This document shows, piece after piece, positions 5,813-26,045 of a stretch of 64,000 bases of DNA. Origin of the DNA: Patescibacteria group bacterium (GTDB lineage: Bacteria > Patescibacteriota > Dojkabacteria > JAKAPS01). The translations under genes were made by a program, and so were the position numbers. Within the stretch, counting starts at the first letter, position 1. The number at the start of each line of letters is the position of its first letter. Location: NCBI GenBank assembly GCA_025450075.1, contig JANWIC010000007.1, forward strand, positions 39,289 to 103,288, given 5' to 3'. The notes under the pieces are model-generated. The model was not told where the DNA came from and did not search any database. It was given only the letters and a program-made list of their open reading frames with translations.

Positions 5813-6892
5813 TTGAGGTCAGCCATAAAGTATGATAGAATCTTGATACTTTTTTGTATTAATGTGGAACATGACCGATTATCTTTTGCTTATTCCGAAA
5901 CATTTCCTGAAAGTTTGCTGCCTCTTTTTGAAACTAATGAATGTGAACTTGCAGAAGAACTGCTTTGTGAACTTCATGCATGGGGCGTTTATACTAGAAC
6001 TAAACTTAATAAAAGATATCTAAAATCAGGCATTATCAGTCCTAATAGGGACATAGCTAGGCAAGCAATTGAAAGAGGAAATGAAATATTTTCAGTATTA
6101 AATAAAACTCCTCTTTTAGTAGATACTAATCCAGAACAAGAACTTGCCATTCGGGTAACCGCCTTTGAAAAGATTCTTTGGCTGTTAGTTCCTGATGAGA
6201 TAAGAAAGATTCTGGAAAAAACAAGTGAAAGAATTGCAAAGGTAATACCGATGGGATTTGGAATTGCTTTGATTGGTGGAACGGGGTTTGGAGCGGTATA
6301 TGAAAGGATGCTGATGGGGCTGAATATAAAGAATGGAGATGTTGATATTAAGCATTTCGAAGATGATATTCTCCCGCCTCGTTTACAAATGATGATAAAT
6401 AATATTATTCAAGATGAATTAAGAAGTAATTCTCTTGGTATGCGCTTATGTTCACACTTTAATGGAAATAATAGGGGAGAGAATAATCTTACACATGAAG
6501 TAGATCCTATTAATCAATTGGAATATGATGTCTTTTTTAATTTGTCTTTTCCACAAGATATTAATCAAAGAAATAGAGAAGCAATTTTTAAAAGGCTTAG
6601 TTATTTTGCAAGAACCGATAGGGAACGTTGGATTAGGCTAATAGAAACGATAATGATTAGAATAACAAAAAATCCTATTGAATCAAAATATATTTCTCCA
6701 TGGTTAGCTATTCCTCTTCAACATGACCCAGTTGTCCATATTTCAAGGTTACGTATTTATCAACTTAATTTTGATATTTCAGAACAAGAGCTATTACGTG
6801 TCGCGCACATTGCAAAACTTGGGAAGAAACTTTATCAACTCCTCATACTTCGAATGCTACTTGCGACTGGAGTCCAGGAAGAAATTGCTTAA
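5813..6892 (+). CDS. hypothetical protein (359 aa; start uncertain)
   Basis: Long ORF; no recognisable motif. Confidence 0.4.
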   Translation: MRSAIKYDRILILFCINVEHDRLSFAYSETFPESLLPLFETNECELAEELLCELHAWGVYTRTKLNKRYLKSGIISPNRDIARQAIERGNEIFSVLNKTPLLVDTNPEQELAIRVTAFEKILWLLVPDEIRKILEKTSERIAKVIPMGFGIALIGGTGFGAVYERMLMGLNIKNGDVDIKHFEDDILPPRLQMMINNIIQDELRSNSLGMRLCSHFNGNNRGENNLTHEVDPINQLEYDVFFNLSFPQDINQRNREAIFKRLSYFARTDRERWIRLIETIMIRITKNPIESKYISPWLAIPLQHDPVVHISRLRIYQLNFDISEQELLRVAHIAKLGKKLYQLLILRMLLATGVQEEIA

Positions 6893-7242
6893 AGGCTGCT
6901 TTGATCTTGGATATATTGCATAATTTGCTTTGGTGTCATGTTGTAGTTCAGATGATTCATGATCCAGATTGATGCGACAATGACAACTACTACTGCTCCG
7001 AATGTAGATATAAAGAAGACAACATTCCACCGGGGAGCTGGCTCTTGTCCTAAATGGAGAAAGAATACAAGTTGCACAAATAATTGGATAAGTGCAATTA
7101 TTAAAATAATTGGTAGAAGAATTTCATGAGGGATTTGTTCATGATATGAATTAACATGAATCAAGACAAGGATATATGCGAGAAATGTTAAAATCAAAGA
7201 GAGTATAAAACCTGCAATGTATGTTTTAAGTGTTTTTGTCAT
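6889..7242 (-). CDS. cyoD: quinol oxidase subunit IV (CyoD/QoxD-like)
   Basis: ~117-aa, 3-TM protein. Its ATG overlaps the cyoC stop (ATGA). It is last in the oxidase operon. Confidence 0.6.
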   Translation of the reverse strand: MTKTLKTYIAGFILSLILTFLAYILVLIHVNSYHEQIPHEILLPIILIIALIQLFVQLVFFLHLGQEPAPRWNVVFFISTFGAVVVVIVASIWIMNHLNYNMTPKQIMQYIQDQSSL

Positions 7243-7808
7243 AGCGCGACTCCCATAAGATAGACAATTGTAAAGATAAAAATCCAAACAATATCAAGAA
7301 AATGCCAGAATAAACTCATCAAGGTAATTTTTCGTATTCCTCCTTGTGTCAATCCCTTTTTCAAGATGAAAATGATTAAAATAAGCATCCATAATAGTCC
7401 TGCTGTAATATGCAGCCCATGTGTTCCGACTAAGGCAAAATATGATGACAAGAAAGCGCTTTTTTGATATGTATGTCCTTCTGAAAATAAATGAGAAAAT
7501 TCATACAATTCCATTCCTAAAAACCCAGCTCCAAGAAGAAAAGTTGTACATAACATCGCTATTACTCCTTTTAATTTCTTCTCATGAGCAAGAAGCAATG
7601 CTACTCCGCAGGTAAAACTACTTGTCAAAAGGAAAAGTGTTTCTACAAGGACAAATGGCATATTAAAAATTTGCGAACCTCCAACTCCTCCAAAAGTATT
7701 ATTCCGTAATACAATAAATGCAGCAAAAAGTCCTGCAAACATTAACAAGTCTGTCATTAAGTATATCCAGAAACCTAAAAATGTTTTTTCGTTTTTTTCT
7801 TCATGCAT
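7239..7808 (-). CDS. cyoC: heme-copper quinol oxidase subunit III
   Basis: 189-aa polytopic protein directly downstream of subunit I, with a subunit-III-like hydrophobic profile. Confidence 0.65.
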   Translation of the reverse strand: MHEEKNEKTFLGFWIYLMTDLLMFAGLFAAFIVLRNNTFGGVGGSQIFNMPFVLVETLFLLTSSFTCGVALLLAHEKKLKGVIAMLCTTFLLGAGFLGMELYEFSHLFSEGHTYQKSAFLSSYFALVGTHGLHITAGLLWMLILIIFILKKGLTQGGIRKITLMSLFWHFLDIVWIFIFTIVYLMGVAL

Positions 7809-9789
7809 ATATGTGGTCCTTTCTTTCCTGTTCTAATTTTGCAATTTCTTGAGCAGTTAATATATATTCAGTTTCTTCATCAAAAGCCCTGATGATGAGG
7901 CATACCATCATTCCCACAAATCCTATACCTGCGATCAGAAACATATGCCATACCATTGCAAATCCAAATAATAGAGCAAATCCTGCAAGATAGATCCCAA
8001 ACGGTGTATTTTTTGGTAATTCAAAATCTTTGTATTCCACATTTGCAGGCTGCGGATTTTCTTTCATTTCTTTTTTCATCTCCCAGAAAGCATCTCTGCC
8101 ATGAACTTCAGGAATTACTGCATAGTTATAAAAGGGAGGAGGGGAAGATGTTGCCCATTCAAGGTTTCTGGCATCCCATGGGTCACCTGACAAGTCCATA
8201 TTTTGTTTTCTATTTTTTATACTAATGATGATTTGTAGGATTTGGGTAGTTACTCCTGCAAGTATTACCATAAATCCAAGAACCGATATGATAAACAATG
8301 GTTGCCAGGCTGGATTTGTATAATGGTCAAGCCGTCTCGTTGCACCCATATATCCGAGAATATATAACGGGATAAAGGCAAGGAAAAAACCGGTAAGCCA
8401 GAACCAGAAAGCAGTCTTCCCTAATTTTTCATTCAGTTTAAATCCCATAAACTTTGGGAACCAGTATGTAATCCCTGCGAACAATCCGAATAATGCACCT
8501 CCAACAATCATGGTATGGAAATGTGCGACAAGAAATAGTGAGTTATGTAATTGATAATCTGCAGTAGGAGATGCTAGCAAGACTCCTGCAATACCTCCGA
8601 ATGTAAAAGTTGCTACAAACCCTAAGAACCAGTAGAGCGAAGATGACAACACAATCCTTCCCCGATACATCGTTGATAACCAATTAAAGATCTGGACTCC
8701 GGTAGGGATAGCGATAATCATAGTTGAAATACCAAAGATTGCATTCACATCTGCTCCTGCTCCCATGGTAAAGAAATGATGAAGCCATACCATTAATGAA
8801 AGAATAGTTACAAAAATTGCTGCAAGAACTTGTGAGGTATATCCGGCAAGTTTTTTGTGACTAAATGTTGATACGACTTCAGAAAATATACCAAAAGAGG
8901 GGAGTACTAAAATATATACTTCCGGATGTCCCCACATCCAAATGAGGTTAATATACATCATCGGATTTCCGCCATTTGTGGTAGTAAAAAAATGCATTCC
9001 TAAATATCGATCAAGAGTTAACATGGCAATGGTTATTGCAAGAATTGGAAAAACAGTTACAACAAGAATACTGCTGCATAGAGTTGTCCATACAAAAAGT
9101 GGCATTCGCATCAAGGTCATGCCAGGTGCGCGCATCTTTAATATGGTTACAAGAAAGTTTAATCCAGCAAGCAAGCTTCCAAGTCCTGATACTTGTAAAC
9201 TCCATATCCAGTAATCAACTCCTACTCCAGGGCTAAATTGCAATTCTGATAATGGCGCTTGAGCAAGCCAACCGGTTGCAGCAAAATCTCCTCCAAATAC
9301 AAAGAACATATTAATGAGGATGGCACCTGCGACATAGAGCCAGAAACCAAGCGTGTTTAGAAAAGGAAATGCCAAATCACGTGCACCGATTTGTAACGGA
9401 ACAACAAGATTCATTAGTCCAACTAATAATCCCATGGTTGCAAAAAATACCATAATATCCCCATGAGCAGTAAATATTTGCTGGAAATGATCTGCACTTA
9501 AGTAACCTGTTGACGATCCCACGGAAAGTGCCTGTTGCATCCAAATCATGATTGCATCTAAAGCTCCTCGAAAAAGCATAAGAAGCGCAACAATGATATA
9601 CATAATTCCGATTCTCTTTGGGTCAGTTGAAGTAAGCCATTCATTCCATAGCCATTTCCACCGCTTTGTATACGTTAATACTGCAGCAGCTACAGCTCCC
9701 ATCAGCATGAGGGTAAGTGTTCCCCCGATGGTATACCATACATGTGGTAGAGAGTTCCAGGTTAATTTACCGAATAGTAAGTTCCACAT
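7801..9789 (-). CDS. cyoB: heme-copper oxidase subunit I
   Basis: WGHPEVYILVLP motif, His ligands (HHFFTMG, HFHT...) and 662 aa with 12+ TM helices. Confidence 0.9.
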   Translation of the reverse strand: MWNLLFGKLTWNSLPHVWYTIGGTLTLMLMGAVAAAVLTYTKRWKWLWNEWLTSTDPKRIGIMYIIVALLMLFRGALDAIMIWMQQALSVGSSTGYLSADHFQQIFTAHGDIMVFFATMGLLVGLMNLVVPLQIGARDLAFPFLNTLGFWLYVAGAILINMFFVFGGDFAATGWLAQAPLSELQFSPGVGVDYWIWSLQVSGLGSLLAGLNFLVTILKMRAPGMTLMRMPLFVWTTLCSSILVVTVFPILAITIAMLTLDRYLGMHFFTTTNGGNPMMYINLIWMWGHPEVYILVLPSFGIFSEVVSTFSHKKLAGYTSQVLAAIFVTILSLMVWLHHFFTMGAGADVNAIFGISTMIIAIPTGVQIFNWLSTMYRGRIVLSSSLYWFLGFVATFTFGGIAGVLLASPTADYQLHNSLFLVAHFHTMIVGGALFGLFAGITYWFPKFMGFKLNEKLGKTAFWFWLTGFFLAFIPLYILGYMGATRRLDHYTNPAWQPLFIISVLGFMVILAGVTTQILQIIISIKNRKQNMDLSGDPWDARNLEWATSSPPPFYNYAVIPEVHGRDAFWEMKKEMKENPQPANVEYKDFELPKNTPFGIYLAGFALLFGFAMVWHMFLIAGIGFVGMMVCLIIRAFDEETEYILTAQEIAKLEQERKDHIYA

Positions 9790-9790
9790 A

Positions 9791-10675
9791 TTACATTTGG
9801 CTCATATATATTGTGTTCCCGTTTGACATATATTTTGCAACAATCGAATTAAACAGGTTCTTGTTTGGTTGGGAGAATTCTTTTCCTTGGTTATTTGTAC
9901 TTGGCTCTACAAGTTTGTTATACCCATTCGTATCTAACATGTTAGCTGATTGATTAATTGATTGTACCCATTGAGAATATTCCTTATTCGATGTCGCTTT
10001 CACTGTAAAATTCATTCCTGAAAATCCTTCACCACTCATTTCAGCTGCACCACCAGGATAGTCTCCGGGTTTATTTGCCATGAGATGTATCTGAGTAACC
10101 ATTCCTGTCATTGCATAAATTTGACCTCCAAGGCTTGGGATCCAGAATGAATTCATCGGTGCATTATCTGCCGTAAGTTGGAAATCTATTGGAGTATTTG
10201 CAGGTATTTCTAAATAGTTAACTGTTGCTATATTTTCCTGGGGATATATGAAAAGCCATTTCCAACGAAGAGCAACAACCTCAATCTCAATAGGTTTTGA
10301 TTGAGCAATAATTGGGTTATATGGGTCATATGCATGTGCAGATTGCCAACCGATGATTGCCCACACAAAGATAATACATGCAGGAATACTCCACCATGCT
10401 GTTGTAAGCTTTTTACCTGCACTCCATTCAGGAGTATAGGCTTGGTTATTTCCTTCCTGATATCGAAATACAATAAATAATGTGAATAATATTAACGGGA
10501 TACCGATACAAAAAGCTAAAACAAGAGCCATGACAAGAAGTGTGCTTTGACCTTGTGCGACATATCCTTGAGGGTTAAGTAACTGGAGATTCCCGTTACG
10601 GGCAAGTATAACAAAAAGAGTTGCAATTGAAAGTGCATCAATAAGGAAGATAACGGTTTTTGCTTTATGTTTCAT
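9791..10675 (-). CDS. cyoA: quinol oxidase subunit II (CuA ligands lost)
   Basis: Subunit II fold with a cupredoxin C-terminal domain. The CuA site reads AEMSGEGFSGM (Cys->Ala/Ser, His->Phe), as in CyoA/QoxA quinol oxidases. Confidence 0.8.
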   Translation of the reverse strand: MKHKAKTVIFLIDALSIATLFVILARNGNLQLLNPQGYVAQGQSTLLVMALVLAFCIGIPLILFTLFIVFRYQEGNNQAYTPEWSAGKKLTTAWWSIPACIIFVWAIIGWQSAHAYDPYNPIIAQSKPIEIEVVALRWKWLFIYPQENIATVNYLEIPANTPIDFQLTADNAPMNSFWIPSLGGQIYAMTGMVTQIHLMANKPGDYPGGAAEMSGEGFSGMNFTVKATSNKEYSQWVQSINQSANMLDTNGYNKLVEPSTNNQGKEFSQPNKNLFNSIVAKYMSNGNTIYMSQM

Positions 10676-11649: not shown

Positions 11650-12738
11650 ATGGAACAACAACCAACTAATATATCACCTTTAATTGCGGCAGAAGCACTA
11701 CTTCCCACAAATGAAGAGAGGCTTCCTTTAGGAGAATATAGTCGCTTTGTTCGTAATGAATTAGCTGAAAAAGTCGCTGAGATGGATGCTTCTAACCAAT
11801 ATGAACAAAATGAGATGTTAAAAGCCTTACAAGTGTATACAGAAAGTTTATTACAAAATATTTCGGAAGATGAAATTAGGCAATTATTGGCAAAAGAAAA
11901 CATTCGGAACAGAAGAATAGCTCTTCTTGATCTCTATCTTTTGCAGCAAGTTATTGATAGGTATGAATATCATCAAAGCAAGGTAAATGATGAAAAACCT
12001 GCTTCTAATTTAGAAAAAATATTAAAGCGTCTTGCAAATAGGGAAGGATTTGATCCGCAAAAAATGCCATGGTCTTTAACCGGAAAAGATTATCCAATAG
12101 AGGATCCCCGATTTATGTTTATTGATGAGAGTGTTAGACAAAGTGAATGGGTATTACTTGTCATGCAATATTTATTAGAAAATAGATTTTCATCAGCTGC
12201 TAATGATTTGGTAGTAATTGCCGGTGACATCCGTAGAGGCGTTTCGCAAGATATGGTAACACAACAGTTACAAAAAGTCCTCGAAACATTGGCACCTATT
12301 CAGGACTTAATGAAGTTATATCAGCTTATCCCAGTTCCAAATTTTGATAAATTCCTAACCCGATATTATCCTTCAGGTGCATTTGCAGTAGATATTTATG
12401 TCGTCGAAGCACTTACGGGAAATGCACAAACAGCTAAATCTGCAAGAGTAAAGATGATAAAGTTATTACAAGATCTTAGAGGAGAAATCGATCCTGATAT
12501 GATCAGAAACATGGAATATGCATTAGCAATTGGTATGCCAATTGCTTCAATGGAGGAAGCAAACAGGTATCCAGGTTCAATAGATTTACTTGCTGCTTGT
12601 GCAAAAAGGGTAAACCTCTTTCTTGCATCTCATCTAGCAGCGGCTAAACATCATACACATGGAGGCGATGAAGAATTAAAAACGAGACCCTCCTTTGATC
12701 CCAATAATAATGCATGGAATTCCATGCGCCCTCTATAG
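11650..12738 (+). CDS. hypothetical protein (362 aa)
   Basis: Long ORF; no family recognised. Confidence 0.45.
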   Translation: MEQQPTNISPLIAAEALLPTNEERLPLGEYSRFVRNELAEKVAEMDASNQYEQNEMLKALQVYTESLLQNISEDEIRQLLAKENIRNRRIALLDLYLLQQVIDRYEYHQSKVNDEKPASNLEKILKRLANREGFDPQKMPWSLTGKDYPIEDPRFMFIDESVRQSEWVLLVMQYLLENRFSSAANDLVVIAGDIRRGVSQDMVTQQLQKVLETLAPIQDLMKLYQLIPVPNFDKFLTRYYPSGAFAVDIYVVEALTGNAQTAKSARVKMIKLLQDLRGEIDPDMIRNMEYALAIGMPIASMEEANRYPGSIDLLAACAKRVNLFLASHLAAAKHHTHGGDEELKTRPSFDPNNNAWNSMRPL

Positions 12739-14737: not shown

Positions 14738-15973
14738 ATGGGCTATGAAAATGGAGTTACTCAATCATATTCACCAACAGGTTTACCACTTATCACTGAA
14801 GGATTTGCTCTAGAATTATTAAGTAGTGAAATTGATTTTGACCACTTTTATACGGTTGTTCAATCTATCCTTGACGAGAATCCATATCTTGCATTGGTTA
14901 TTCATAACATAGTTTCCTTATTAAGATCGGAAGTCCCGAATACAATTGAAGGGTTACATCTTCCTGAAAAATTAAACAAAGAAGATTTAATTGGAGAAGT
15001 TAAACTAACGGGAGTCTATCAGGTATTAGAGGTAAGAAATACAATTTTAGAACATACATCGTTAGTATTATTATTTATACTTCATGAGCAATCTTTATAT
15101 CATTTGCAAAATTCAATTAGTTATCGAGATCAAGGAAAAGGTAGATTAACATCAAGTGGATTACCTTTTTTATCTGCTATTACATATGAACAAGTTATCA
15201 ATTTTGTAAATAATAAAATTAAAGAAGGTAATGGTCAATTACTTGGGTATCAAAATGCGCATCCTCCTGAAGATCATTTATATCATTTAATCGATGGAAT
15301 AGCTGAGGTATATGGAGATGTACTCGCACCTGATATAAAAATAGTTTTATATTACATTATTGCTATTTTAGAAACTCAGCATAATATAGATGCAGAATTA
15401 CCCGATTATATGAAAAACGGATTACCTGTTTTACATGCTGAAGATGTCGATTTGTATCATAAAAGTAGAACAAGGAGACTCCTTCCAAATAATTATTTTT
15501 TCTTGAGGACTAATATAAAAAACGATTTAAATCGTTGGAATTTCTTCAAAATTACTAATCCTGATGTTACAATAAAGTATATCCTTACCTTATTGGGAGG
15601 AGTTTGTACTAAAAATGAAGCAAATAAGATTTTTGATAGATGTATGCATCATTTAGGAGATTTATTAACATTTTTGTATGGTAGGGATTTAATTAGAAAT
15701 AATCATTCAAATGGTACTCGTCCTCATTCTAATGCTTTATTTGGTCCGCCATATATTACAGATAAGGTACTAAATGAGGCAATGAGAAGATATCCGGGTA
15801 AATTATGGCCTGAGTTTATGAATGAAGTACAAGAACGATTATTGAGAGATAATCCATATTTAGTTGAGTTGATGTATGCAATTGTTGAAGATTATCAGGA
15901 TGAAGAATTAAAAAAACTTGTATTACAAATGATGATGGGTTTTATAGCATTAAATGAATATAAAGGAAGATAA
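14738..15973 (+). CDS. hypothetical protein (411 aa)
   Basis: Long ORF; no family recognised. Confidence 0.45.
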   Translation: MGYENGVTQSYSPTGLPLITEGFALELLSSEIDFDHFYTVVQSILDENPYLALVIHNIVSLLRSEVPNTIEGLHLPEKLNKEDLIGEVKLTGVYQVLEVRNTILEHTSLVLLFILHEQSLYHLQNSISYRDQGKGRLTSSGLPFLSAITYEQVINFVNNKIKEGNGQLLGYQNAHPPEDHLYHLIDGIAEVYGDVLAPDIKIVLYYIIAILETQHNIDAELPDYMKNGLPVLHAEDVDLYHKSRTRRLLPNNYFFLRTNIKNDLNRWNFFKITNPDVTIKYILTLLGGVCTKNEANKIFDRCMHHLGDLLTFLYGRDLIRNNHSNGTRPHSNALFGPPYITDKVLNEAMRRYPGKLWPEFMNEVQERLLRDNPYLVELMYAIVEDYQDEELKKLVLQMMMGFIALNEYKGR

Positions 15974-15990: not shown

Positions 15991-17505
15991 CTAAAGTCCA
16001 GCGAAATAATCTTTTTTTATGTGTTTTTTCGGTATTCCCATTGTTAGAAGAAAATCCTGCGCACCGCTTACCATTGCTGTAGGACCAGAGATGTAATAAA
16101 TCCTATCCAAATAATCTGGAACTTCGGCTTGAATCATTTGTGAGTTAATCCTCCCTTTATTCCCCGGCCATCCTTGTGGAATAACTGATGTGTCAGTAAG
16201 CGTATAGATGGTTTTGATGCCAAGCTTCTGTTTTGCTTCTTTAAGCACATCAGTATAGGCAATTTCCTCAGCAGTTTTATTTGTATAAAATACAACAATA
16301 TCTCTTTTCTGGTTAGTATCAATAAGATATTTCAACATACTACGAAATGGAGTAATGCCGATACCACCAGCGATAAAGACTAATTTTTGATTTTTGTTTC
16401 TTGGCAAGGTAAAATCTCCTGAGATTTGTGAACCGACAATAACTGATCCTCTATCAAGTTGGCTCATCGCTTTTTTGTAACTGCTCCCGATACCATAAAA
16501 TTTAACTCCCAATCTGATATAATCTTCTGTTGGAGATGATGCTATGGTAAAAAATCTCCTGTTTCCTCTTGAATCATGGCCATCAGGTGGAAGTGTCCAT
16601 TCCATATACTGGCCGGGTTTGAATGAAACATTCTTATGAATATCCAAAAGAAAATCCATTCTATTCGGTGTTGTTTGGATTTTCTCTTTCACTATGGCAA
16701 AAATCTTATGTTTCGGACTAATGAGATATGAAAAAGCATTCCCTATAACAAGAGCAAGTTCCGGAGTTGTATAAAAACCCACAATATGAAATTCTGGCAC
16801 AAATAAGAACCCAACAAATGCTCCATAGAGAGATTGTAAAGTTTTTGTTGGAGGTGTTGTAAGTGGCTCCGTAAGCATGACAAATGCAAAGAAAAAGATC
16901 GAAGATGCAAAAATAGTATCATGTAAAGCTGAAAGGATATTTTGTCCGCTTAATAAGCTGAATACTATTAGACTTACAAAGGCACTTAAAAAAAAGTAGT
17001 ATACAAGGTCAAATCTTCTAATCCTTCTGACAATAAACACTCCAAGAAGGAGAAAAGGAAGCATTGATGCAGTCCCAATCCACCAGCTTGCAGACCCATT
17101 GAATGCATATGCTGTTAATACTACAGCAATTGCGACTGGATTAAAGATATGTTTTTTGTTAATCGCAAGAATAAATTTCGTTGCCATGGATAATATCCCT
17201 GCCCATATAAAAAGAGGGAAATCGGCAGCGCTTTTAATTGGTGTTAAAATCAGGGCTAAAATCAATGCGGTAATATATACTGATTCTGCATTCACCGGAA
17301 CCTGGAATACGTTTGCAAATATTACATTCGTAATAAGCGAAACACTCAAAAGGACAAGGACTGAGATACCAAGGGAAACAAGACTAAATGGCAGTATTCC
17401 CAAGATAGAATATATTCCCGCAATAATTAGAAGTAGGATGAGGAAATATAGTACCAAACGATACATGGTAATTGAGTTCAAAATTTCATCTATTTTTTTT
17501 AACAT
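15991..17505 (-). CDS. membrane-anchored FAD/NAD(P)-binding oxidoreductase (FNR-like C-terminal domain, ~8 TM at the N-terminus)
   Basis: RFFTIASS (RxYS-type FAD motif) and GGIGITPF (NAD(P) site) in the C-terminal 230 aa. The N-terminal half is polytopic with few His, so it is not a bis-heme ferric-reductase type. Confidence 0.65.
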   Translation of the reverse strand: MLKKIDEILNSITMYRLVLYFLILLLIIAGIYSILGILPFSLVSLGISVLVLLSVSLITNVIFANVFQVPVNAESVYITALILALILTPIKSAADFPLFIWAGILSMATKFILAINKKHIFNPVAIAVVLTAYAFNGSASWWIGTASMLPFLLLGVFIVRRIRRFDLVYYFFLSAFVSLIVFSLLSGQNILSALHDTIFASSIFFFAFVMLTEPLTTPPTKTLQSLYGAFVGFLFVPEFHIVGFYTTPELALVIGNAFSYLISPKHKIFAIVKEKIQTTPNRMDFLLDIHKNVSFKPGQYMEWTLPPDGHDSRGNRRFFTIASSPTEDYIRLGVKFYGIGSSYKKAMSQLDRGSVIVGSQISGDFTLPRNKNQKLVFIAGGIGITPFRSMLKYLIDTNQKRDIVVFYTNKTAEEIAYTDVLKEAKQKLGIKTIYTLTDTSVIPQGWPGNKGRINSQMIQAEVPDYLDRIYYISGPTAMVSGAQDFLLTMGIPKKHIKKDYFAGL

Positions 17506-17507
17506 AT

Positions 17508-18044
17508 TTATTGTGCTTTACTTAATGCATCTTGCAAGGATTGTATGAATGCCTGGCTGGAATCAGTTGCTCCAGAGACAATGTCGACATTTGCACTTTG
17601 AGCTTGAATAGCTTCTTGGGCTAAAATCGGATCGGCTTGTGAGTTTATATAAACTGATGTGGATCGGTCATTTGGCGCTTGCAAAAATGATATATTCGAA
17701 ATTTTTCCGTTTTTTACTGTTGTCTGGACTTGAATAATGCCATAAAATGCATCAGCTTGAGAACCTGTATACACACCATCTTTATACTTTCCAGAAGGAG
17801 TTGGAGTAGGTGTTGGAGTCGAAGTTGGTGTATCAGTTCCTGACTGTATCGATGTATCTGTTGGAGTTGGACTAGGAGATAGGCTTGGTGTTGTTGTCTG
17901 GGATGGAGAAGGTGATGGGACAATCTTTTGAGCGATTAATGCTGGTTGTCCAAGTCCGCTGTTTCTTGCAAAAACAGAGTAGATGAGAAACATTGTTATT
18001 ACACTTCCTGATAATAGTAGTTTTTTTCCCATAATATTATACAT
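17508..18044 (-). CDS. FMN-binding domain protein (NqrC/RnfG-like FMN_bind) with a signal/TM and a Pro/Ser/Thr-rich linker
   Basis: DIVSGATDSSQAF matches the flavinylation motif (S/T-G-A-T-x-S-S). Long PSPSPSQTTTPSLSPSPTPT... linker. Confidence 0.7.
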   Translation of the reverse strand: MYNIMGKKLLLSGSVITMFLIYSVFARNSGLGQPALIAQKIVPSPSPSQTTTPSLSPSPTPTDTSIQSGTDTPTSTPTPTPTPSGKYKDGVYTGSQADAFYGIIQVQTTVKNGKISNISFLQAPNDRSTSVYINSQADPILAQEAIQAQSANVDIVSGATDSSQAFIQSLQDALSKAQ

Positions 18045-18790
18045 TACAAATGTACAAATGATTGAAAATTGGAGGTATAGGTTGCTATCCCTTCCTTATC
18101 AACCATATATCCCTCATATCCTTCAAGATTTTCAATAAATATGATACCATCTTTTCCCATGGCAAATGCTGCAGTTGCAAACCTGTCTGCTTCATAAATA
18201 TTTGGACCAATAACACTTAAGCTGACTATATCAGTTATGTCACAATCTCTATCTTTTGGGTTGTATATATGGTTTCCTCTAAAATATGTGCCGGATGTTG
18301 CAATAGCAGTATCATGTAAAGTGATTTTTTTGATGATCTCATCCCTTTTAAAAGGATTCCTAATCCCGACTATCCATTCCTCATCGTTTTCATTTTTCCC
18401 TGACACTTGGATATCTCCTCCCGCTTCTATATAGAAGTTGTGGAATCCTTTGGAATGTAACTTTTTAGCTACTTCAAAAATTGCCCATCCTTTTACGAGT
18501 CCCGCTGGCTCTAAACTTCCATCTTTTCTATGTATATCAAAAAATCCATTAGTAGCAAGTCTGGTTTGTTCGCATAAAGTAAGAATATTACGCATTTCAC
18601 TGCTGTAATAGTCTTCTTTTTCTTCCCCTTTATTAATTTTGCTTATTTCACTATCTTCTTTGTAGGTGCTGAAGCGATTATCTATCTTATGGAAATATGA
18701 AAATATTTCATTGAAAATATTCTCATCAGTTTTACTATCAAGTATTTCAATTGTAATGGGAAGACCCATGATCCATTCTGTTTTTTTCAT
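18044..18790 (-). CDS. apbE: ApbE-family FAD:protein FMN transferase (short form, no signal peptide detected)
   Basis: MGLPITIEI start, IEAGGDIQVSG, ATSGTYFR and VIGPNIYEADRFATAAF motifs. Start and stop overlap the flanking FMN-bind genes. Confidence 0.7.
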   Translation of the reverse strand: MKKTEWIMGLPITIEILDSKTDENIFNEIFSYFHKIDNRFSTYKEDSEISKINKGEEKEDYYSSEMRNILTLCEQTRLATNGFFDIHRKDGSLEPAGLVKGWAIFEVAKKLHSKGFHNFYIEAGGDIQVSGKNENDEEWIVGIRNPFKRDEIIKKITLHDTAIATSGTYFRGNHIYNPKDRDCDITDIVSLSVIGPNIYEADRFATAAFAMGKDGIIFIENLEGYEGYMVDKEGIATYTSNFQSFVHL

Positions 18791-19227
18791 TATTTTGCTT
18801 GTTGTAATGCAATTTGGAGTGATGCAGCAAATGCCTGGCTGGATGCTGTTGCTCCTGAAACTATATCAACATTCGGACTCTGAGCTTGAATTGCTTCCTG
18901 AGCAAGATTAGGATCAGCTATAGTATTAATGGCAACTGACCGAATAGCTTCATTTGGTGCTTGAAGGAAAGATACATTTGCTATTTTACCATTTTTGATT
19001 GTTGATTGTACTTGGATTATCCCATAAAAAGCATTCTCGGCAGAACCTGTATAGACTCCATCTTTATATGGTGGAGAAAGAGAACTGGTTCTGGCTGCCT
19101 GAGCATTTGAATTGTTCGAGAAGAAACTATGATTAGCTAACATGACTAAAAATATTCTTCCCTGATCTTGATACAGAACTGCTCCAAAACTTAAGAGTAT
19201 TGCAAGTATAGTAAGAATCTTTTTCAT
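18790..19227 (-). CDS. FMN-binding domain protein (paralog of 17508..18044)
   Basis: DIVSGATASSQAF. The C-terminal ~100 aa is ~70% identical to the downstream paralog. It has an N-terminal signal/TM. Confidence 0.7.
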   Translation of the reverse strand: MKKILTILAILLSFGAVLYQDQGRIFLVMLANHSFFSNNSNAQAARTSSLSPPYKDGVYTGSAENAFYGIIQVQSTIKNGKIANVSFLQAPNEAIRSVAINTIADPNLAQEAIQAQSPNVDIVSGATASSQAFAASLQIALQQAK

Positions 19228-19579
19228 AAACTTTTCTCATACAACTCATTGTACGGTATTATGATGAAAATTTTATGAGAAGCTGGAAGAAATGAAACTG
19301 GTTGGTAATTTAAAGAGATGCCATAGCACTTCTAATACATGGGTGGCTATATTTGAACTTCAAACAATTACTATATAAAGAGGATCTTAAAAAACTTTCT
19401 ATGTTTTGTATAGTTTAGAACTATGAGAAGTAATTGAAACTTCAAAAATCAGATATTATGCATAATTATTTGTCTAGTTTTGTAAATGATCAGTTTTTAT
19501 TCAAATATAAATTTCTTAAAGAAATTAACTTGTGTTTTCAATGAGGATTGTTTAGAATAAAATAACAACTCAACTATTT

Positions 19580-21112
19580 ATGGCAGACCAACAATCCCCT
19601 GAACAAGATACTCCGAGAATAAATACCCCTTATTCAGGTGATAGTAGAAGTGAATTAGTTACAACTGATAGTGGAGATCCTGTCGTTTCGAGAAGAACTA
19701 TTTTAAAAAAAGGAGTTTGGGGTGCATTAGGAATTGTTTTGTTAGGAATGGGTGTAGAGGGTTGGAGGAATGCTGGGAGATTAGTACAATTAGCAGAAGA
19801 GGGTTTAGATCCTATCATGTATAACGAGACTCAAGAAGGGGATACAACAGTTATAGAATTCTTTGGATACAACCTTTCAACATTACAACATGTTCTCGAT
19901 GAAAAATTAAGATCAGGAACAAATCCTATCAAAGTAAAAATTCTTCAACCAGAGTTATATAATACTAAGAAGGAAGCCCGATCAGTAAAGGTACCTACAA
20001 GACCCGGACAACCAGAAGAATATGGAGAAGGAATAGCTGGATTATTTATTAAATGTAGACCAAGTGAGACAGGAGAGAAAAGAAAAGTAACAATAATCGG
20101 AGCAAATCCTCCAGAGCCAATAGCACTAGAATTTAATGGAAATGCTTCGATAGAACACCGAAAGAGTCCTCGATTAATTCATCAATCCCATTATGGAATC
20201 TATGCCGAAGGTGTAGATTTAACCATTGAAAATCTTGACTTTTATCAAGGAGATGGAAGTGGAACTAACAATACAGAAAGAGCACATATTTTTGCATATA
20301 ATTCTGAAATTCGCATTAATAATGTAGGGGTTGATGGAAGTTCTGATAATATCGGAACTTCTAATGTCCTTTCACCTGATGGGAAAGTTGTAGGCAAGAC
20401 CTCAAAAGGTTTATCCGGAATCTATCTATTAGATTGTTCTCAAGCTACGATTCAAAAAGTAACATTGACTAAAACGAGTTGGGATGGAATAACTTTGAAT
20501 GGTACAAATGGTAATATAGATAGTGCAACAATTAAAGGAACAATGCTTGATTCAAGTGCGGGAATTGGAATTACACAAAATGGGAGACTCCTGCCTAAGA
20601 ACACTGTCATTATAAGAAACACTCAAGTTGTGTCTCGAATTAAAGGAATTATTGGATTTGATAATGTAGATATTTCGCTTGAGGAAGTTAGTATTGATTA
20701 TAATGGAATGCCTGATAAATCTTATGGAATTGCTGCAACTGGATCAGAACAAACCCCATTAAATTTTTCTATGAAAAGATCTAGCATTAATGGCTTGGGT
20801 GATAATATATTGGCAACCAATGCTCATATAGATAATTCACTCTTTGTTTGCCATGCAGGGAGTAGAGATACAATTGCTTTGTATGGGAGATTTGCAGGTG
20901 ATTTAATTACAATAACACCTGATTCATTTAGAGTTTTTAGAAACAACACAGTACAAGTAAATAGTAGTTTATATACTGACTGTAATTATGAACCAGTGAA
21001 ATTGTTTGATGTGCTTTTCCAAATTTGGTCTTTTTCAATTAAGGATAGTGATTCAAAAGCCTTGTATGAGCAATTCTTAGCACAAGGTAATAAGTTTGAA
21101 ATAGTGGATTAG
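19580..21112 (+). CDS. Tat-signal secreted right-handed beta-helix (pectate-lyase-fold) protein
   Basis: Twin-arginine motif SRRTILKKGVWGALGIVLLG. Repeated NG/DG-rich parallel beta-helix turns (ITLNGTNGNIDSATIKGT...). Confidence 0.55.
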   Translation: MADQQSPEQDTPRINTPYSGDSRSELVTTDSGDPVVSRRTILKKGVWGALGIVLLGMGVEGWRNAGRLVQLAEEGLDPIMYNETQEGDTTVIEFFGYNLSTLQHVLDEKLRSGTNPIKVKILQPELYNTKKEARSVKVPTRPGQPEEYGEGIAGLFIKCRPSETGEKRKVTIIGANPPEPIALEFNGNASIEHRKSPRLIHQSHYGIYAEGVDLTIENLDFYQGDGSGTNNTERAHIFAYNSEIRINNVGVDGSSDNIGTSNVLSPDGKVVGKTSKGLSGIYLLDCSQATIQKVTLTKTSWDGITLNGTNGNIDSATIKGTMLDSSAGIGITQNGRLLPKNTVIIRNTQVVSRIKGIIGFDNVDISLEEVSIDYNGMPDKSYGIAATGSEQTPLNFSMKRSSINGLGDNILATNAHIDNSLFVCHAGSRDTIALYGRFAGDLITITPDSFRVFRNNTVQVNSSLYTDCNYEPVKLFDVLFQIWSFSIKDSDSKALYEQFLAQGNKFEIVD

Positions 21113-21561: not shown

Positions 21562-22356
21562 TTATGAAATTTTTCGAATTTTTAATAGTTCTTCAAAATC
21601 GTTTTGATTAAATTCAATATCTACTTTCAAAGCTTTAGCATGTTTTCTAAATAATTCAAAGAGTTCCATAAGAGATTGAAGTAAAGAACCTTCTTCTCTT
21701 GATCTGATCTGTTCTCTATTAGAAAAGTCAATTAAAGTAACAATTGATTTCTTGTCTTGGGTGAAATGAAATAAAATATTGCCAGGATTTGGATCATACA
21801 TCCATATTCCTGTATTCAAAAATAAAGTAGCAGCTTTCCTAAATGCAATTGCATATGTGTCACTTATCAATTTCGTTGTTGCTATTCCATCTTTTACATA
21901 TCGTTCAATTGTTGGTCCTAAATGGGGACAAACAAATGCATCCAATTCTTGATTACCCACATTAACTTTAACCATTCGAAATTTAGCGCAGGCTTCTTGT
22001 TTAACTCCACACCAATTTGCAGCTTTTAAGCCATACTTGCATGCTTGAGTAAGTTGGTTTAAAAGTATGTGGTATCTTTTGCTTTCAATTGAATCAAGAT
22101 AGAACGGATTAACAATTTTAAGCCATTCTTCAGAGGTTGGATTAAAGAAAATTATGTAATAGTCTGGTGTATCATTAATTGGCTCATTATGGTTAGTGAT
22201 ATGTCCTTTAACTTGGTACCAAGTTGAAGTTCTTCCTTCAACTTGAATTGGGATAGCGGCTATTGATTCCCAAGCATTGGCAGTAACCTGTACTGTATCC
22301 AAATCAATTGAGTCGGTTTCACTGCTCAATAATAATTGTTCATTAACATTTGACAT
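21562..22356 (-). CDS. atypical protein-kinase-like (PKL) fold protein (Kdo/RIO/APH-like catalytic loop)
   Basis: MYDPNPGNILF (cf. HGDLHPGNIL) and LIDFSN (DFG-like). Confidence 0.45.
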   Translation of the reverse strand: MSNVNEQLLLSSETDSIDLDTVQVTANAWESIAAIPIQVEGRTSTWYQVKGHITNHNEPINDTPDYYIIFFNPTSEEWLKIVNPFYLDSIESKRYHILLNQLTQACKYGLKAANWCGVKQEACAKFRMVKVNVGNQELDAFVCPHLGPTIERYVKDGIATTKLISDTYAIAFRKAATLFLNTGIWMYDPNPGNILFHFTQDKKSIVTLIDFSNREQIRSREEGSLLQSLMELFELFRKHAKALKVDIEFNQNDFEELLKIRKIS

Positions 22357-25620: not shown

Positions 25621-26045
25621 TGGTGGAGATGGGGGGAGTCGAACCCCCGTACAAGACAAAAGAACAGATATAGTACTACAAGCTTACTTAGCTTCGTTTT
25701 TTTACATTCAGATCCTCAAAGCTAAGAAAAAAGATCATGAAAGGATATAATTAAGTACATATCAAGTTGCTATATCAGACAGCATGACATATACCTGACT
25801 GTTTTTTTGCCCTACTATTCCCATCAGGCGAGGTTTAGTAAAACACCAGCGATCTAATTTAGATATATGCTGGAGTATAAGCTGGAGCTCTGAAGAAATT
25901 AACTACAGAAGCTACTGTTGCCTGTACTTTTTGACTGAATGTGTTTGCATTTATGTCATTGGTACGTTTTTTTACGAAGTTATTACCATAATCTTCGGCT
26001 TGCTATATAAGCCCTATTTACCCTGGCGAAACCAAATACATCCCC
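25621..26045 (-). ncRNA. ssrA: tmRNA (ssrA)
   Basis: 5' GGGGATGTATTTGGTTTCGCCAGGG (cf. conserved GGGG...GGAUUCGACGGG). 3' GGGGGTTCGACTCCCCC-CATCTCC-A-CCA. The acceptor has a G3:U70 (Ala identity) pair and an encoded CCA. A candidate tag ORF starts GCA AAC (A N...). Confidence 0.75.

Follow-up and report, generated by a model that had tools for sequence, protein, structure and literature searches.

The window, a 64,000-nucleotide stretch of DNA from a candidate phyla radiation (CPR) bacterium, contains a real four-gene operon on its minus strand, read 5′ to 3′ as FMN_bind-1, ApbE, FMN_bind-2 and a membrane/FNR fusion protein (Table 1). The genes are closely packed; FMN_bind-1 and ApbE, and likewise ApbE and FMN_bind-2, overlap by 1 nt at a TAATG junction, and a 2-nt spacer separates FMN_bind-2 from the fusion gene. 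Such overlaps and short spacers make the translational coupling stated in the initial annotation plausible. The HMM searches suggested earlier returned PF04205 for both small proteins, PF02424 for ApbE and PF00175 for the fusion (E 1.4e-17), and the motifs quoted at that stage (DIVSGATASSQAF, DIVSGATDSSQAF, GGDIQVSG, TSGTYFR, ADRFATAAF, RFFTIASS and GGIGITPF) are all present in the ORF translations. In the divergent intergenic region upstream of the operon, an Rfam search found neither a riboswitch nor any other Rfam family, and consensus promoter matches were no more frequent than in shuffled sequence.

Table 1. Genes and features of the operon, with positions in the window.
Feature	Position	Strand	Remarks
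FMN_bind-1	18790-19227	-	145 aa; ORF, PF04205 E 1.2e-8
ApbE-type FAD:protein FMN transferase (predicted), short	18044-18790	-	248 aa; PF02424 E 1.9e-38
FMN_bind-2	17508-18044	-	178 aa; PF04205 E 9.2e-10
Fusion protein gene	15991-17505	-	504 aa ORF; PF03116 + PF00175
Predicted flavinylation motif SGAT, Thr127 of FMN_bind-1	18847-18858	-	Context DIVSGATASS, translation
Predicted flavinylation motif SGAT, Thr160 of FMN_bind-2	17565-17576	-	Context DIVSGATDSS, translation
RnfD/NqrB-like membrane domain of fusion, residues 1-265	16711-17505	-	~10 helices
NqrF/FNR-like FAD + NAD(P)H module of fusion, residues 268-504	15994-16704	-	Predicted cytoplasmic
AT-rich divergent intergenic region, 352 bp, upstream of operon	19228-19579	.	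Presumed promoter region, role inferred only

The FMN-binding proteins and conservation of the module

FMN_bind-1 starts with MKK and a single hydrophobic anchor (residues 1-19), from which a short linker leads to the FMN-binding domain at the C-terminus; FMN_bind-2 has an N-terminal anchor, a Pro/Ser/Thr-rich linker of ~60 residues and then the FMN-binding domain. The two domains share 75% identity over 92 residues, in agreement with the earlier view of the two small genes as paralogs, and are homologous to a solved FMN-binding domain, 8p2a_A. Both proteins carry DIVSGAT, a match to the ApbE recognition motif Dxx[ST]GA[ST] known for the family (review PMC12052999).

Among 185,579 species-representative genomes the module is conserved at no fewer than 577 confirmed loci, mostly in Patescibacteria and Chloroflexota. 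In the neighbourhood comparison proposed earlier, the gene order is kept in relatives: FMN_bind-ApbE-fusion dominates, with 53 of the 72 loci that have enough upstream flank, the others being FMN-fusion (7), FMN-ApbE-FMN-fusion as in the window (5), ApbE-FMN-fusion (3), ApbE-fusion (2), FMN-FMN-fusion (1) and the fusion alone (1). The FMN_bind partners across the related loci all have the MKK start and TM anchor, a Pro/Ser/Thr-rich linker and an [ST]GA[ST] motif, which is near the C-terminus in every listed partner and ~20 residues from it in nearly all; a further candidate (L033, 2241-2750) gave a weak 20-bit match and was rejected as not a true FMN_bind protein. An FMN2-type partner adjoins the fusion in nearly all related loci, and the FMN_bind-2 type is the universal partner of the fusion protein. 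Only five of the 80 related loci have an FMN1-type copy: L001, L002, L004 and L005 have it upstream of ApbE, and L007, which has no adjacent ApbE, has it upstream of the second FMN_bind gene. FMN_bind-1 is a lineage-specific, recent extra copy. Among the same 80 loci no acceptor gene is conserved beside the module; neighbours vary, and the sole recurring one is a two-component system (12/80).

The short ApbE

The ApbE of the cluster belongs to a distinct short clade of ~245 aa in which the helical insert is largely missing and the catalytic motifs are intact. The ApbE domain matches PF02424 at 133 bits, and the AF2 model (pLDDT 93.7), compared by Foldseek with all solved ApbE/FmnB/Ftp structures, gives query-normalised TM scores of 0.81-0.89 with E down to 4e-21 (0.87 against FmnB/ApbE structures), the target-normalised values being only 0.64-0.72. 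In the phmmer alignment, query residues 2-78 correspond to chain residues 23-87 and query residues 91-242 to chain residues 161-322, so that the ~70 residues of the insert are reduced to ~12 (query 79-90 versus chain 88-160 of the solved ApbE). The helical insert domain comprises residues 88-190 of T. maritima ApbE (PMC12052999). Residues invariant in 35 ApbE homologues are H174, K100-G101-W102, G125-D126, A164-T165-S166-G167 and A201-D202-R203-F204-A205-T206. The counterpart of H174 in 6nxi is the His of HIIDP; the catalytic His of V. cholerae ApbE is H257, numbered here after entry 6nxj, whose title reads "H257G mutant". On its domain, double T-fold and catalytic motifs, the ApbE of the window is predicted to be a FAD:protein FMN transferase. 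As described for entries 4xdr and 4xdt, certain ApbE/Ftp proteins combine the functions of FMN transferase and FAD pyrophosphatase.

The N-terminus of this ApbE belongs to the fold. Its start, MKKTEWIMGLPITIEIL, is the first beta strand, and residues 2-16 make up the first two beta strands of the AF2 model; an upstream extension of the ORF is impossible in the sequence, and all 35 aligned homologues start with MKQTxxxMGMP. Characterised bacterial ApbEs typically carry a lipoprotein or secretion signal at the N-terminus. The window ApbE has neither a signal peptide nor a lipobox, a signal peptide is absent from 35/35 aligned homologues, and none of 111 representatives of the short clade has a hydrophobic N-terminal extension. 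The earlier description of an unusually short ApbE devoid of a signal peptide thus stands.

The membrane/FNR fusion protein

The C-terminal part of the fusion matches PF00175 (NAD_binding_1, residues 377-483), and its membrane domain matches PF03116 (NQR2_RnfD_RnfE, residues 135-263) at 28.5 bits versus a cut-off of 27.7, an assignment supported by fold comparison. This match corrects the statement in the initial annotation that the architecture is not that of Nqr/Rnf; the membrane domain also has ~10 helices instead of the ~8 first counted. RnfD aligns to the fusion only from residue 202 onward. The membrane domain has lost the RnfD flavinylation loop: the loop between helices 123-135 and 149-162 is a vestige of 13 residues (136-148), and the [ST]GA[ST] motif is absent from the window fusion and from 40 of 41 homologues. 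By the positive-inside pattern, the FNR module shares one side with the RRIRR and KKH loops, and the vestigial loop 136-148 is on the other. The fusion contains no Cys and no haem-type His pairs, its membrane domain having only two conserved His residues, H119 and H240, on opposite faces; Pfam gives no PF01794 (ferric reductase) match, and the view that it is not a ferric-reductase protein is sustained. With no Cys, haem-type His pairs or flavinylated loop in the fusion, any transmembrane path must be all-flavin.

The RnfD/NqrB homology of the membrane domain is compatible also with ion coupling or quinone binding. In an ion-coupled device, the RnfD/NqrB-like domain would keep a putative cation path and pump Na+/H+, or a gradient would drive reverse flow in which electrons from an external donor are taken up to give NAD(P)H. 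The domain is homologous to the NqrB/RnfD subunits of ion-translocating complexes, and three invariant acidic residues, E74, E213 and E249, are membrane-embedded or interfacial, E213 lying within LTEPLTTPP, which aligns to ATDPVTSP of RnfD. We nevertheless consider ion coupling unlikely, as neither the operon nor its flanks encode NqrD/E or RnfA/E, the subunits that form the first transmembrane electron path and have been linked to coupling, and electron flow would be single-pass rather than semicircular (PMC8238504).

Relation to known flavin-based systems

By its domain content, the operon is assigned to the already described "NQR/RNF-like" system, which was defined by Méheust 2021 (eLife, PMC8238504), modelled by Huang 2024 (mSystems, PMC11334425) and is so far known from bioinformatics only; no experimental characterisation of any member was found in the literature searched. 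The operational definition is a PF03116+PF00175 fusion beside FMN_bind/ApbE (PMC8238504, including supplementary file 2), and the window has N-terminal PF03116 and C-terminal PF00175 on one protein, with FMN_bind, ApbE and FMN_bind directly upstream at overlaps or spacers of ≤2 nt. Huang 2024 described an RnfD/NqrB-like subunit without the conserved flavinylated Thr and, in an AlphaFold-multimer model, placed the covalent FMN of FMN_bind in the flavin site of its RnfD-like partner (PMC11334425); the RnfD/NqrB-like part of the window fusion has no flavinylated Thr either. The anchored NqrC/RnfG-like FMN_bind, the ApbE and the occurrence in CPR genomes are also common to both. The reading as a flavinylation/membrane electron-transfer operon is upheld by this content (two ApbE-type substrates, an ApbE and an FNR-fused polytopic reductase), but the novelty of the architecture had been overestimated, since the same fusion in a flavinylation cluster was already published (PMC8238504, PMC11334425). 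What differs is that two FMN_bind paralogs flank ApbE in the window (and in only 4 of the 80 related loci), whereas the published system has two structural subunits, and that the short, signal-less form of ApbE is not discussed in PMC8238504 or PMC11334425. The module also seems far commoner here (≥577 loci in 185,579 genomes) than in the published survey (127 clusters from 31,910 genomes).

The operon shares with Na+-NQR and Rnf the NqrB/RnfD fold, an anchored NqrC/RnfG-type FMN_bind with the SGAT Thr, an NqrF-like FAD/NAD module and maturation by ApbE. In contrast to Na+-NQR (NqrA-F) and Rnf (RnfABCDEG), it lacks NqrA, NqrD/E, RnfA/E and RnfB/C, and Pfam analysis of all flanking genes and phmmer searches of the window ORFs revealed no further Nqr/Rnf subunits; its fusion, which joins the B/D-type subunit to the F-type module, has no 2Fe-2S domain, and the loop for covalent FMN is gone from the B/D-type part. 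A single-pass instead of a semicircular electron flow is predicted, and any ion pumping would be hypothetical. Canonical complexes carry FMN covalently on the NqrB/RnfD Thr and have an Fe-S centre in the subunit that oxidises NADH or faces ferredoxin. The incomplete subunit set, the missing flavinylation motif and the absence of Cys from the fusion rule out a canonical Na+-NQR/Rnf complex.

The Listeria-type flavin-based extracellular electron transfer (EET) set consists of Ndh2, EetA/B, PplA and FmnB, with the RibU/FmnA FAD exporter. It resembles the present operon in the ApbE-family flavinylation of a surface-anchored FMN_bind protein thought to serve extracellular acceptors; its membrane step, however, is Ndh2, demethylmenaquinone and EetA/B, all absent at the window locus, and of the two Listeria lipoproteins, PplA has two FMN_bind domains and the secreted FmnB a complete helical domain. 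Against the NCBIfam PplA model, whose cut-off is 325, the window FMN_bind proteins reach 20.5 and 22.4 bits, and there are no Ndh2 or Eet genes among the genes neighbouring the operon, which rules out a Listeria PplA/FmnB/Ndh2 locus and agrees with the different membrane partner that had been noted.

In other lineages (L082-L084, L088, L090) the pair of short ApbE and anchored FMN_bind also adjoins NOX-like fusions of Ferric_reduct and NAD_binding_1. These clusters, the "MsrQ-like" class of Méheust 2021, share with the window an FNR-fused transmembrane reductase, an anchored FMN_bind, a signal-less ApbE of the same clade and a recurrent neighbouring two-component system; they differ in having the di-haem ferric-reductase fold (PF01794) where the window has an RnfD/NqrB fold without haem ligands.

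Proposed electron path

NOX-like ferric-reductase fusions carry electrons outward from cytoplasmic NAD(P)H, and their association with the same ApbE + FMN_bind pair supports an outward direction here. A moderately probable reading, proposed here, is that the four genes specify an "NQR/RNF-like" module that moves electrons across the membrane by way of flavins, together with a dedicated maturation enzyme. In the cytoplasm, the NqrF/FNR-like part of the 504-aa fusion would oxidise NAD(P)H on FAD, and the electrons would enter the fused RnfD/NqrB-like domain, presumably through a non-covalent flavin at the site used by RnfD/NqrB. They would then pass to the FMN phosphoester-linked to the SGAT Thr of an anchored FMN_bind protein at the outer face and from there to a putative extracytoplasmic acceptor, e.g. 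Fe(III), free flavins, O2 or a partner cell. The ApbE homologue would attach FMN to the FMN_bind proteins; FMN_bind-1, with its short tether, may serve as a membrane-proximal relay, and FMN_bind-2, the universal partner, has the long Pro/Ser/Thr tether. The net effect would be NAD(P)+ regeneration in a largely fermentative CPR cell.

Respiratory genes in the window suggest another destination for the electrons. A cyo-like quinol oxidase operon is real and complete (COX2+COX_ARM, COX1, COX3 and COX4_pro at 6889-10675), as is a cytochrome b-like gene (1215-2657). NqrB of Na+-NQR hosts riboflavin and a quinone site. As NqrB is the quinone-reducing subunit of that complex (see also PMC11334425), the FNR module might oxidise NAD(P)H, the NqrB-like domain reduce quinone and the cyo-type oxidase reoxidise the quinol, with the FMN_bind subunits as intermediates or accessories, a scheme close to the "small non-canonical redox chain" suggested earlier. 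We hold such a quinone reductase to be quite unlikely. The oxidase and cytochrome b genes lie 5-14 kb outside the operon with unrelated genes between and no operon link that we could find, and in the 80 related loci neither is found again next to the module. Moreover, the most conserved partner is the extracytoplasmic subunit with its long tether and predicted covalent flavin, which a quinone reductase could do without, and to our knowledge quinone biosynthesis is absent from most CPR genomes.

Compartments and the maturation route

One feature of the operon seems unexplained: ApbE is apparently inside the cell and its FMN_bind targets outside. By hydropathy, both FMN_bind proteins have an N-terminal hydrophobic segment that would be an anchor or a cleavable signal, and ApbE has none; Méheust 2021 selected extracytosolic systems by requiring that FMN_bind or ApbE carry a signal peptide or a lipidation site. 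An ApbE without export signal beside extracytoplasmic-looking substrates points to something unconventional, be it in the inferred topology or in the maturation route. The initial annotation had counted a placement in different compartments with no plausible route against its own reading; at the level of prediction the compartments do differ, which we take as a puzzle and not as a refutation. The question is not addressed in PMC8238504 or PMC11334425.

The compartments would become consistent if the FMN_bind domains acted on the cytoplasmic side, or if ApbE had another cytoplasmic job, such as supplying the membrane domain with flavin or acting as a FAD pyrophosphatase; the operon would then encode no extracytoplasmic exporter. 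The uniform lack of hydrophobic extensions (0/111) and signal peptides (0/35) in the clade fits this arrangement, as does the existence of bifunctional ApbE/Ftp proteins (4xdr, 4xdt) and of cytoplasmic ApbEs, namely that of Klebsiella pneumoniae and the ApbE domains fused to trypanosomatid fumarate reductases, which likewise have no secretion signal and act inside the cell (PMC12052999). The substrates of these cytoplasmic ApbEs are soluble cytoplasmic enzymes, however, whereas the only apparent substrates in the window are membrane-anchored and of extracytoplasmic type, and the window ApbE additionally lacks most of the helical insert domain. We regard this reading as very unlikely, because the FMN_bind partners uniformly show a basic start, hydrophobic helix and Pro/Ser/Thr linker, the signature of N-in/C-out anchored surface proteins; because the RnfD/NqrB flavin loop is outward by homology, the vestigial loop lying opposite the K/R-rich loops; and because the transferase catalytic His and Mg/FAD motifs are invariant in ApbE and the canonical acceptor motifs are conserved in the FMN_bind partners.

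For the outward electron path we tentatively suggest a different solution, namely that a minimal cytoplasmic ApbE flavinylates SGAT before or during translocation ("modify inside, then export") and that the Cys- and haem-free fusion is a purely flavin-based wire. ApbE accepts motifs down to seven residues, best at termini (PMC12052999), and nearly all partners have the motif ~20 residues before the C-terminal end, so that such a route is allowed. If this is true, the targets would be the C-terminal SGAT motifs of Sec-type membrane-anchored FMN_bind proteins, no FAD exporter would be needed, and the same ApbE route would serve this module and the related NOX-like modules. The fusion and its FMN_bind partner would then make up a transmembrane wire of two proteins that uses flavins only, the first of its kind, with a wide distribution in CPR and Chloroflexota.

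Organization of the operon

The four genes packed on the minus strand form one operon encoding two FMN_bind proteins, an ApbE and a fusion of a membrane domain with an FNR module (see table). All four open reading frames reported in the initial annotation were found, the sequence motifs quoted from them were all present in the translations, and Pfam matches were obtained for FMN_bind (E-values of 1.2e-8 and 9.2e-10), ApbE (1.9e-38) and NAD_binding_1 (1.4e-17). The FMN_bind-1/ApbE and ApbE/FMN_bind-2 junctions are both TAATG with a 1-nt overlap and the FMN_bind-2/fusion junction is TAA-AT-ATG, making translational coupling across them plausible. FMN_bind-1 and FMN_bind-2 are indeed paralogs, their domains sharing 75% identity across 92 residues; no extra homologue of ApbE, FMN_bind or the fusion exists elsewhere in the window. 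FMN_bind-2 possesses two in-frame ATGs, M1 and M5, and since the sequence from M5 (MGKKLLL) resembles the MKK-type N-termini of its relatives, its real start may lie 12 nt downstream of the annotated overlap. Upstream of the operon, no riboswitch or other Rfam family was detected at gathering thresholds (chance-level matches only, 19150-19650), and a promoter and terminator scan gave nothing beyond shuffled sequence.

Coordinates of the operon and of other features in the window and in related loci (L numbers)
Feature	Location	Coordinates	Strand	Description
FMN_bind-1	window	18790-19227	-	145 aa; PF04205 match
ApbE	window	18044-18790	-	248 aa; Pfam ApbE
FMN_bind-2	window	17508-18044	-	178 aa; PF04205 match
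FMN_bind-2 ATGs	window	18030-18044	-	M1 and M5
Fusion	window	15991-17505	-	504 aa; NQR2_RnfD_RnfE + NAD_binding_1
Fusion G-S-A-S-W-W	window	17083-17097	-	residues 137-141
Cytochrome b-like gene	window	1215-2657	+	480 aa
Quinol oxidase operon	window	6889-10675	-	cyo-type, haem-copper
Flanking ORF	window	11650-12738	+	362 aa; no Pfam match
Flanking ORF	window	14738-15973	+	411 aa; no Pfam match
Beta-helix protein	window	19580-21112	+	510 aa; right-handed
Flanking ORF	window	21562-22356	-	264 aa; no Pfam match
tmRNA	window	25621-26045	-	Rfam 125 bits; 425 nt
OmpR/HisKA pair	L082	6876-8885		near NOX-like cluster
OmpR/HisKA pair	L090	1-1053		near NOX-like cluster
Glutathione-peroxidase-family gene	L086	1867-2376		PF00255
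Glutathione-peroxidase-family gene	L087	1369-1878		PF00255
Apparent FMN_bind::ApbE fusion	L066	4660-6004		artefact

The fusion protein and its partners

The product of the last gene is an NqrB/RnfD-NqrF fusion, an identity that follows from a PF03116 match to its membrane half (28.5 bits against a gathering score of 27.7) together with fold comparison of the membrane domain with RnfD and NqrB structures: 8ahx_D (RnfD; 22.7, 240, 2.6 Å), 7xk3_B (NqrB; 22.3, 251) and 7zc6_D (RnfD; 21.8, 237). The NCBIfam rnfD and NqrB models match this half weakly, and comparison with the PDB by sequence alone found RnfD only, also weakly (E 0.003-0.012), so that the comparison of folds was required. The initial annotation had set the protein apart from the Nqr/Rnf architecture; this holds insofar as the flanking genes include no other subunits of a canonical Nqr or Rnf complex, to which the protein therefore does not belong, but it is built from Nqr/Rnf parts.

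The FNR module carries the RxFT and GGxGxTP motifs in a complete FAD/NAD fold. The membrane domain has about 10 helices, with K/R-rich loops (residues 1-16, KKH 117-119 and RRIRR 160-164) on the same side as the FNR module and, on the opposite side, a 13-residue loop (136-148) at the place where RnfD and NqrB bear their flavinylated loop. The window fusion contains no Cys, the only conserved His residues of its membrane domain, H119 and H240, lie on opposite faces, and the [ST]GA[ST] motif is absent from it as well as from 40 of 41 homologues. Judged from these sequences, Fe-S clusters and haem are effectively excluded from the fusion, and any transmembrane path would have to consist of non-covalent flavin(s) in the RnfD-like domain and the covalent FMN of the partner. 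A near-invariant G-S-A-S-W-W, including Ser140, occupies the outward-facing loop of the window fusion and the corresponding site in 41 homologues; it is similar to the canonical [ST]GA[ST] motif without matching it.

In the related loci, all FMN_bind partners have an N-terminal basic-then-hydrophobic anchor and an [ST]GA[ST] motif near the C-terminus, while a Pro/Ser/Thr-rich linker is usual and not invariable. Among solved structures, the FMN-binding domain 8p2a_A is a homologue of the FMN_bind domain.

Relation to a published system and distribution

Méheust et al. 2021 (PMC8238504) defined "NQR/RNF-like" as a flavinylation-associated cluster with a PF03116+PF00175 fusion, and the window operon falls within this definition. 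It is very probable that the operon belongs to this system, as a new member in which the FMN_bind subunit is duplicated; the architecture as such had been published before and is no new discovery. An AlphaFold-multimer model of the Ktedonobacter complex (Huang et al. 2024, PMC11334425) has an RnfD-like subunit without its flavinylated Thr, and in it the FMN of the NqrC/RnfG-like subunit nears the membrane subunit at its flavin site. A full-text literature search returned no further papers and no experiments on the NQR/RNF-like system. Taken as a whole, what the initial annotation observed is confirmed, and its interpretation is supported in part.

When one genome from each of 185,579 species was scanned, at least 577 loci were confirmed by tblastn. 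The best 80 are 50-62% identical and belong, by record title, either to the Patescibacteria (Levyi-, Ames-, Uhr-, Azam-, Taylor- and Wirthbacteria, WWE3 and Saccharibacteria) or to the Chloroflexota (Anaerolineae, Aggregatilineales, Caldilineales and Herpetosiphonaceae). Open reading frames were called in the related loci and searched with the four window proteins; gene orders were compared across the 72 loci in which the upstream flank spans at least 1.5 kb. Gene order, on whose conservation the initial annotation had staked its reading, is kept in relatives, as the orders recur across these loci: FMN_bind-ApbE-fusion is found in 53 of the 72 and FMN-ApbE-FMN-fusion in five (the window and the related loci L001, L002, L004 and L005), followed by FMN-fusion (7/72), ApbE-FMN-fusion (3/72), ApbE-fusion (2/72), FMN-FMN-fusion (1/72) and the fusion without partners (1/72). 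The universal type of partner is FMN_bind-2, FMN_bind-1 being a lineage-specific added copy. There is essentially no synteny between the window flanks and the related loci. The window SecY is about 50% identical to that of Candidatus Gottesmanbacteria and 69-78% identical to metagenomic sequences, and the GC content of the window is 32-39%; together these values point to a CPR genome of the Microgenomates group.

A clade of short ApbE proteins

The ApbE is as unusually short as had been noted: residues 2-78 and 91-242 align with residues 23-87 and 161-322 of the solved ApbEs, and between these blocks some 12 residues stand for about 70. The reduction falls in the largely helical insert domain, which comprises residues 88-190 in the T. 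maritima enzyme (PMC12052999). An AF2 model of high confidence (pLDDT 93.7) resembles FmnB, ApbE and Ftp (TM 0.81-0.89 query-normalised, 0.64-0.72 target-normalised), and 35 homologues show no variation in the catalytic His (H174) or in the KGW, GGD, ATSG and ADRFAT motifs; from this model and these residues the enzyme looks active.

A HMMER search of 1.84 billion representatives gave 206 clusters at E <= 1e-30, and among the 150 matches listed nearly all complete sequences are about 225-300 aa long. None of the 111 clade representatives with a locatable MG[MT] fold start has a hydrophobic N-terminal extension. Distant members (32-38% identity) reside in Ferric_reduct+NAD_binding_1 - FMN_bind - ApbE clusters on GC-rich actinobacteria-like contigs: in L082-L084, L088 and L090, a short signal-less ApbE of this clade and an anchored FMN_bind protein adjoin NOX-like Ferric_reduct+FAD_binding_8+NAD_binding_1 fusions. 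Since the pair is found beside both RnfD-like and NOX-like fusions, it is a maturation pair common to two unrelated kinds of FNR-fused transmembrane reductase. In two further loci, L086 and L087, a glutathione-peroxidase-family gene directly follows FMN_bind and the short ApbE, a hint that the acceptor in some lineages may be related to peroxide or thiols.

Predicted location of enzyme and substrate in different compartments

ApbE is predicted to be cytoplasmic, with its only apparent substrates outside, a mismatch discussed in neither PMC8238504 nor PMC11334425. Tat export was rejected as the answer: twin arginines occur within the N-terminal 25 residues of only two FMN_bind partners (L012 and L055), and the two full-length partners of actinobacterial type lack them as well. 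Export of ApbE by fusion to or read-through from FMN_bind was also rejected, the sole apparent case, in a long-read Chloroflexia MAG (L066), stemming from indels in the FMN_bind gene; longer ApbE frames at other loci are upstream extensions overlapping the FMN_bind gene in another frame. The window encodes no second, secreted ApbE, and the one additional ApbE among the related loci, a 313-aa protein in L023, is likewise devoid of a signal peptide. ApbE modifies tags down to seven residues, best at termini (PMC12052999), and because the motif lies near the C-terminus here, it may be speculated that this linear motif is flavinylated before or during Sec translocation.

Proposed electron path and neighbouring genes

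It is proposed that NAD(P)H would reduce the FAD of the FNR module, that electrons would pass onward to the flavin site(s) of the RnfD-like domain, and that FMN bound covalently to the anchored FMN_bind protein(s) would take them up and hand them to an external acceptor. We lean towards this route from NAD(P)H to the outside as the mechanism. NOX/ferric-reductase proteins carry electrons outward, and the maturation pair shared with this type supports, by analogy, an outward direction for the RnfD-like version too.

Clustering of the flanking ORFs of 80 loci revealed no conserved terminal acceptor gene. An OmpR-type response regulator and a HisKA sensor kinase recur in 12 of the 80 (including L007 and L040) and also near NOX-like clusters (L082 and L090), suggesting dedicated regulation of FMN_bind/short-ApbE clusters; the pair is missing from the window.

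The window also carries, in what seems to be a CPR genome of the Microgenomates group, a complete quinol oxidase operon (subunit II with COX_ARM and subunits I, III and IV) and a gene whose product, the "cyt b6-like fusion" of the initial annotation, matches cytochrome b/b6 in its N-terminal half (PF13631 and PF00033; weakly DUF4405) and has no Pfam match in its C-terminal ~240 residues. The presence of both would accord with a chain in which the flavin operon, as a mini-NQR, feeds the quinone pool. Such a chain is possible but unsupported: the oxidase and cytochrome b-like genes lie 5-14 kb away, outside the flavin operon, and do not occur near any of the 80 related modules, and transfer to the outside is still the reading we prefer.

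Among the other neighbours, the 411-aa gene converges on the operon end with 17 nt between the two stop codons. At its N-terminus the divergent beta-helix protein has SRRTILKKG ahead of a run of hydrophobic residues; this resembles a Tat signal, in which case the organism would possess a Tat pathway. The tag peptide predicted for the tmRNA, ANTFSQKVQATVASVVNFFRAPAYTPAYI, is unusually long.

Implications

CPR bacteria are regarded as largely fermentative and as having very few outlets for reducing equivalents. The main points of interest are the conserved short signal-less ApbE clade, the all-flavin path and the speculative pre-export flavinylation, and the compartment mismatch poses a concrete question on the maturation and export of covalent flavoproteins. 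Extracytosolic flavinylation was described as "strikingly underrepresented" in CPR by a survey that filtered out genes lacking signal peptides (Méheust et al. 2021, PMC8238504); because the short ApbE clade is signal-less, the system may be commoner than reported. The compact three-gene module, a predicted all-flavin exporter of electrons from NAD(P)H to the outside conserved in many Patescibacteria and Chloroflexota, could be an important, overlooked route for redox balancing or for interaction with hosts or minerals.
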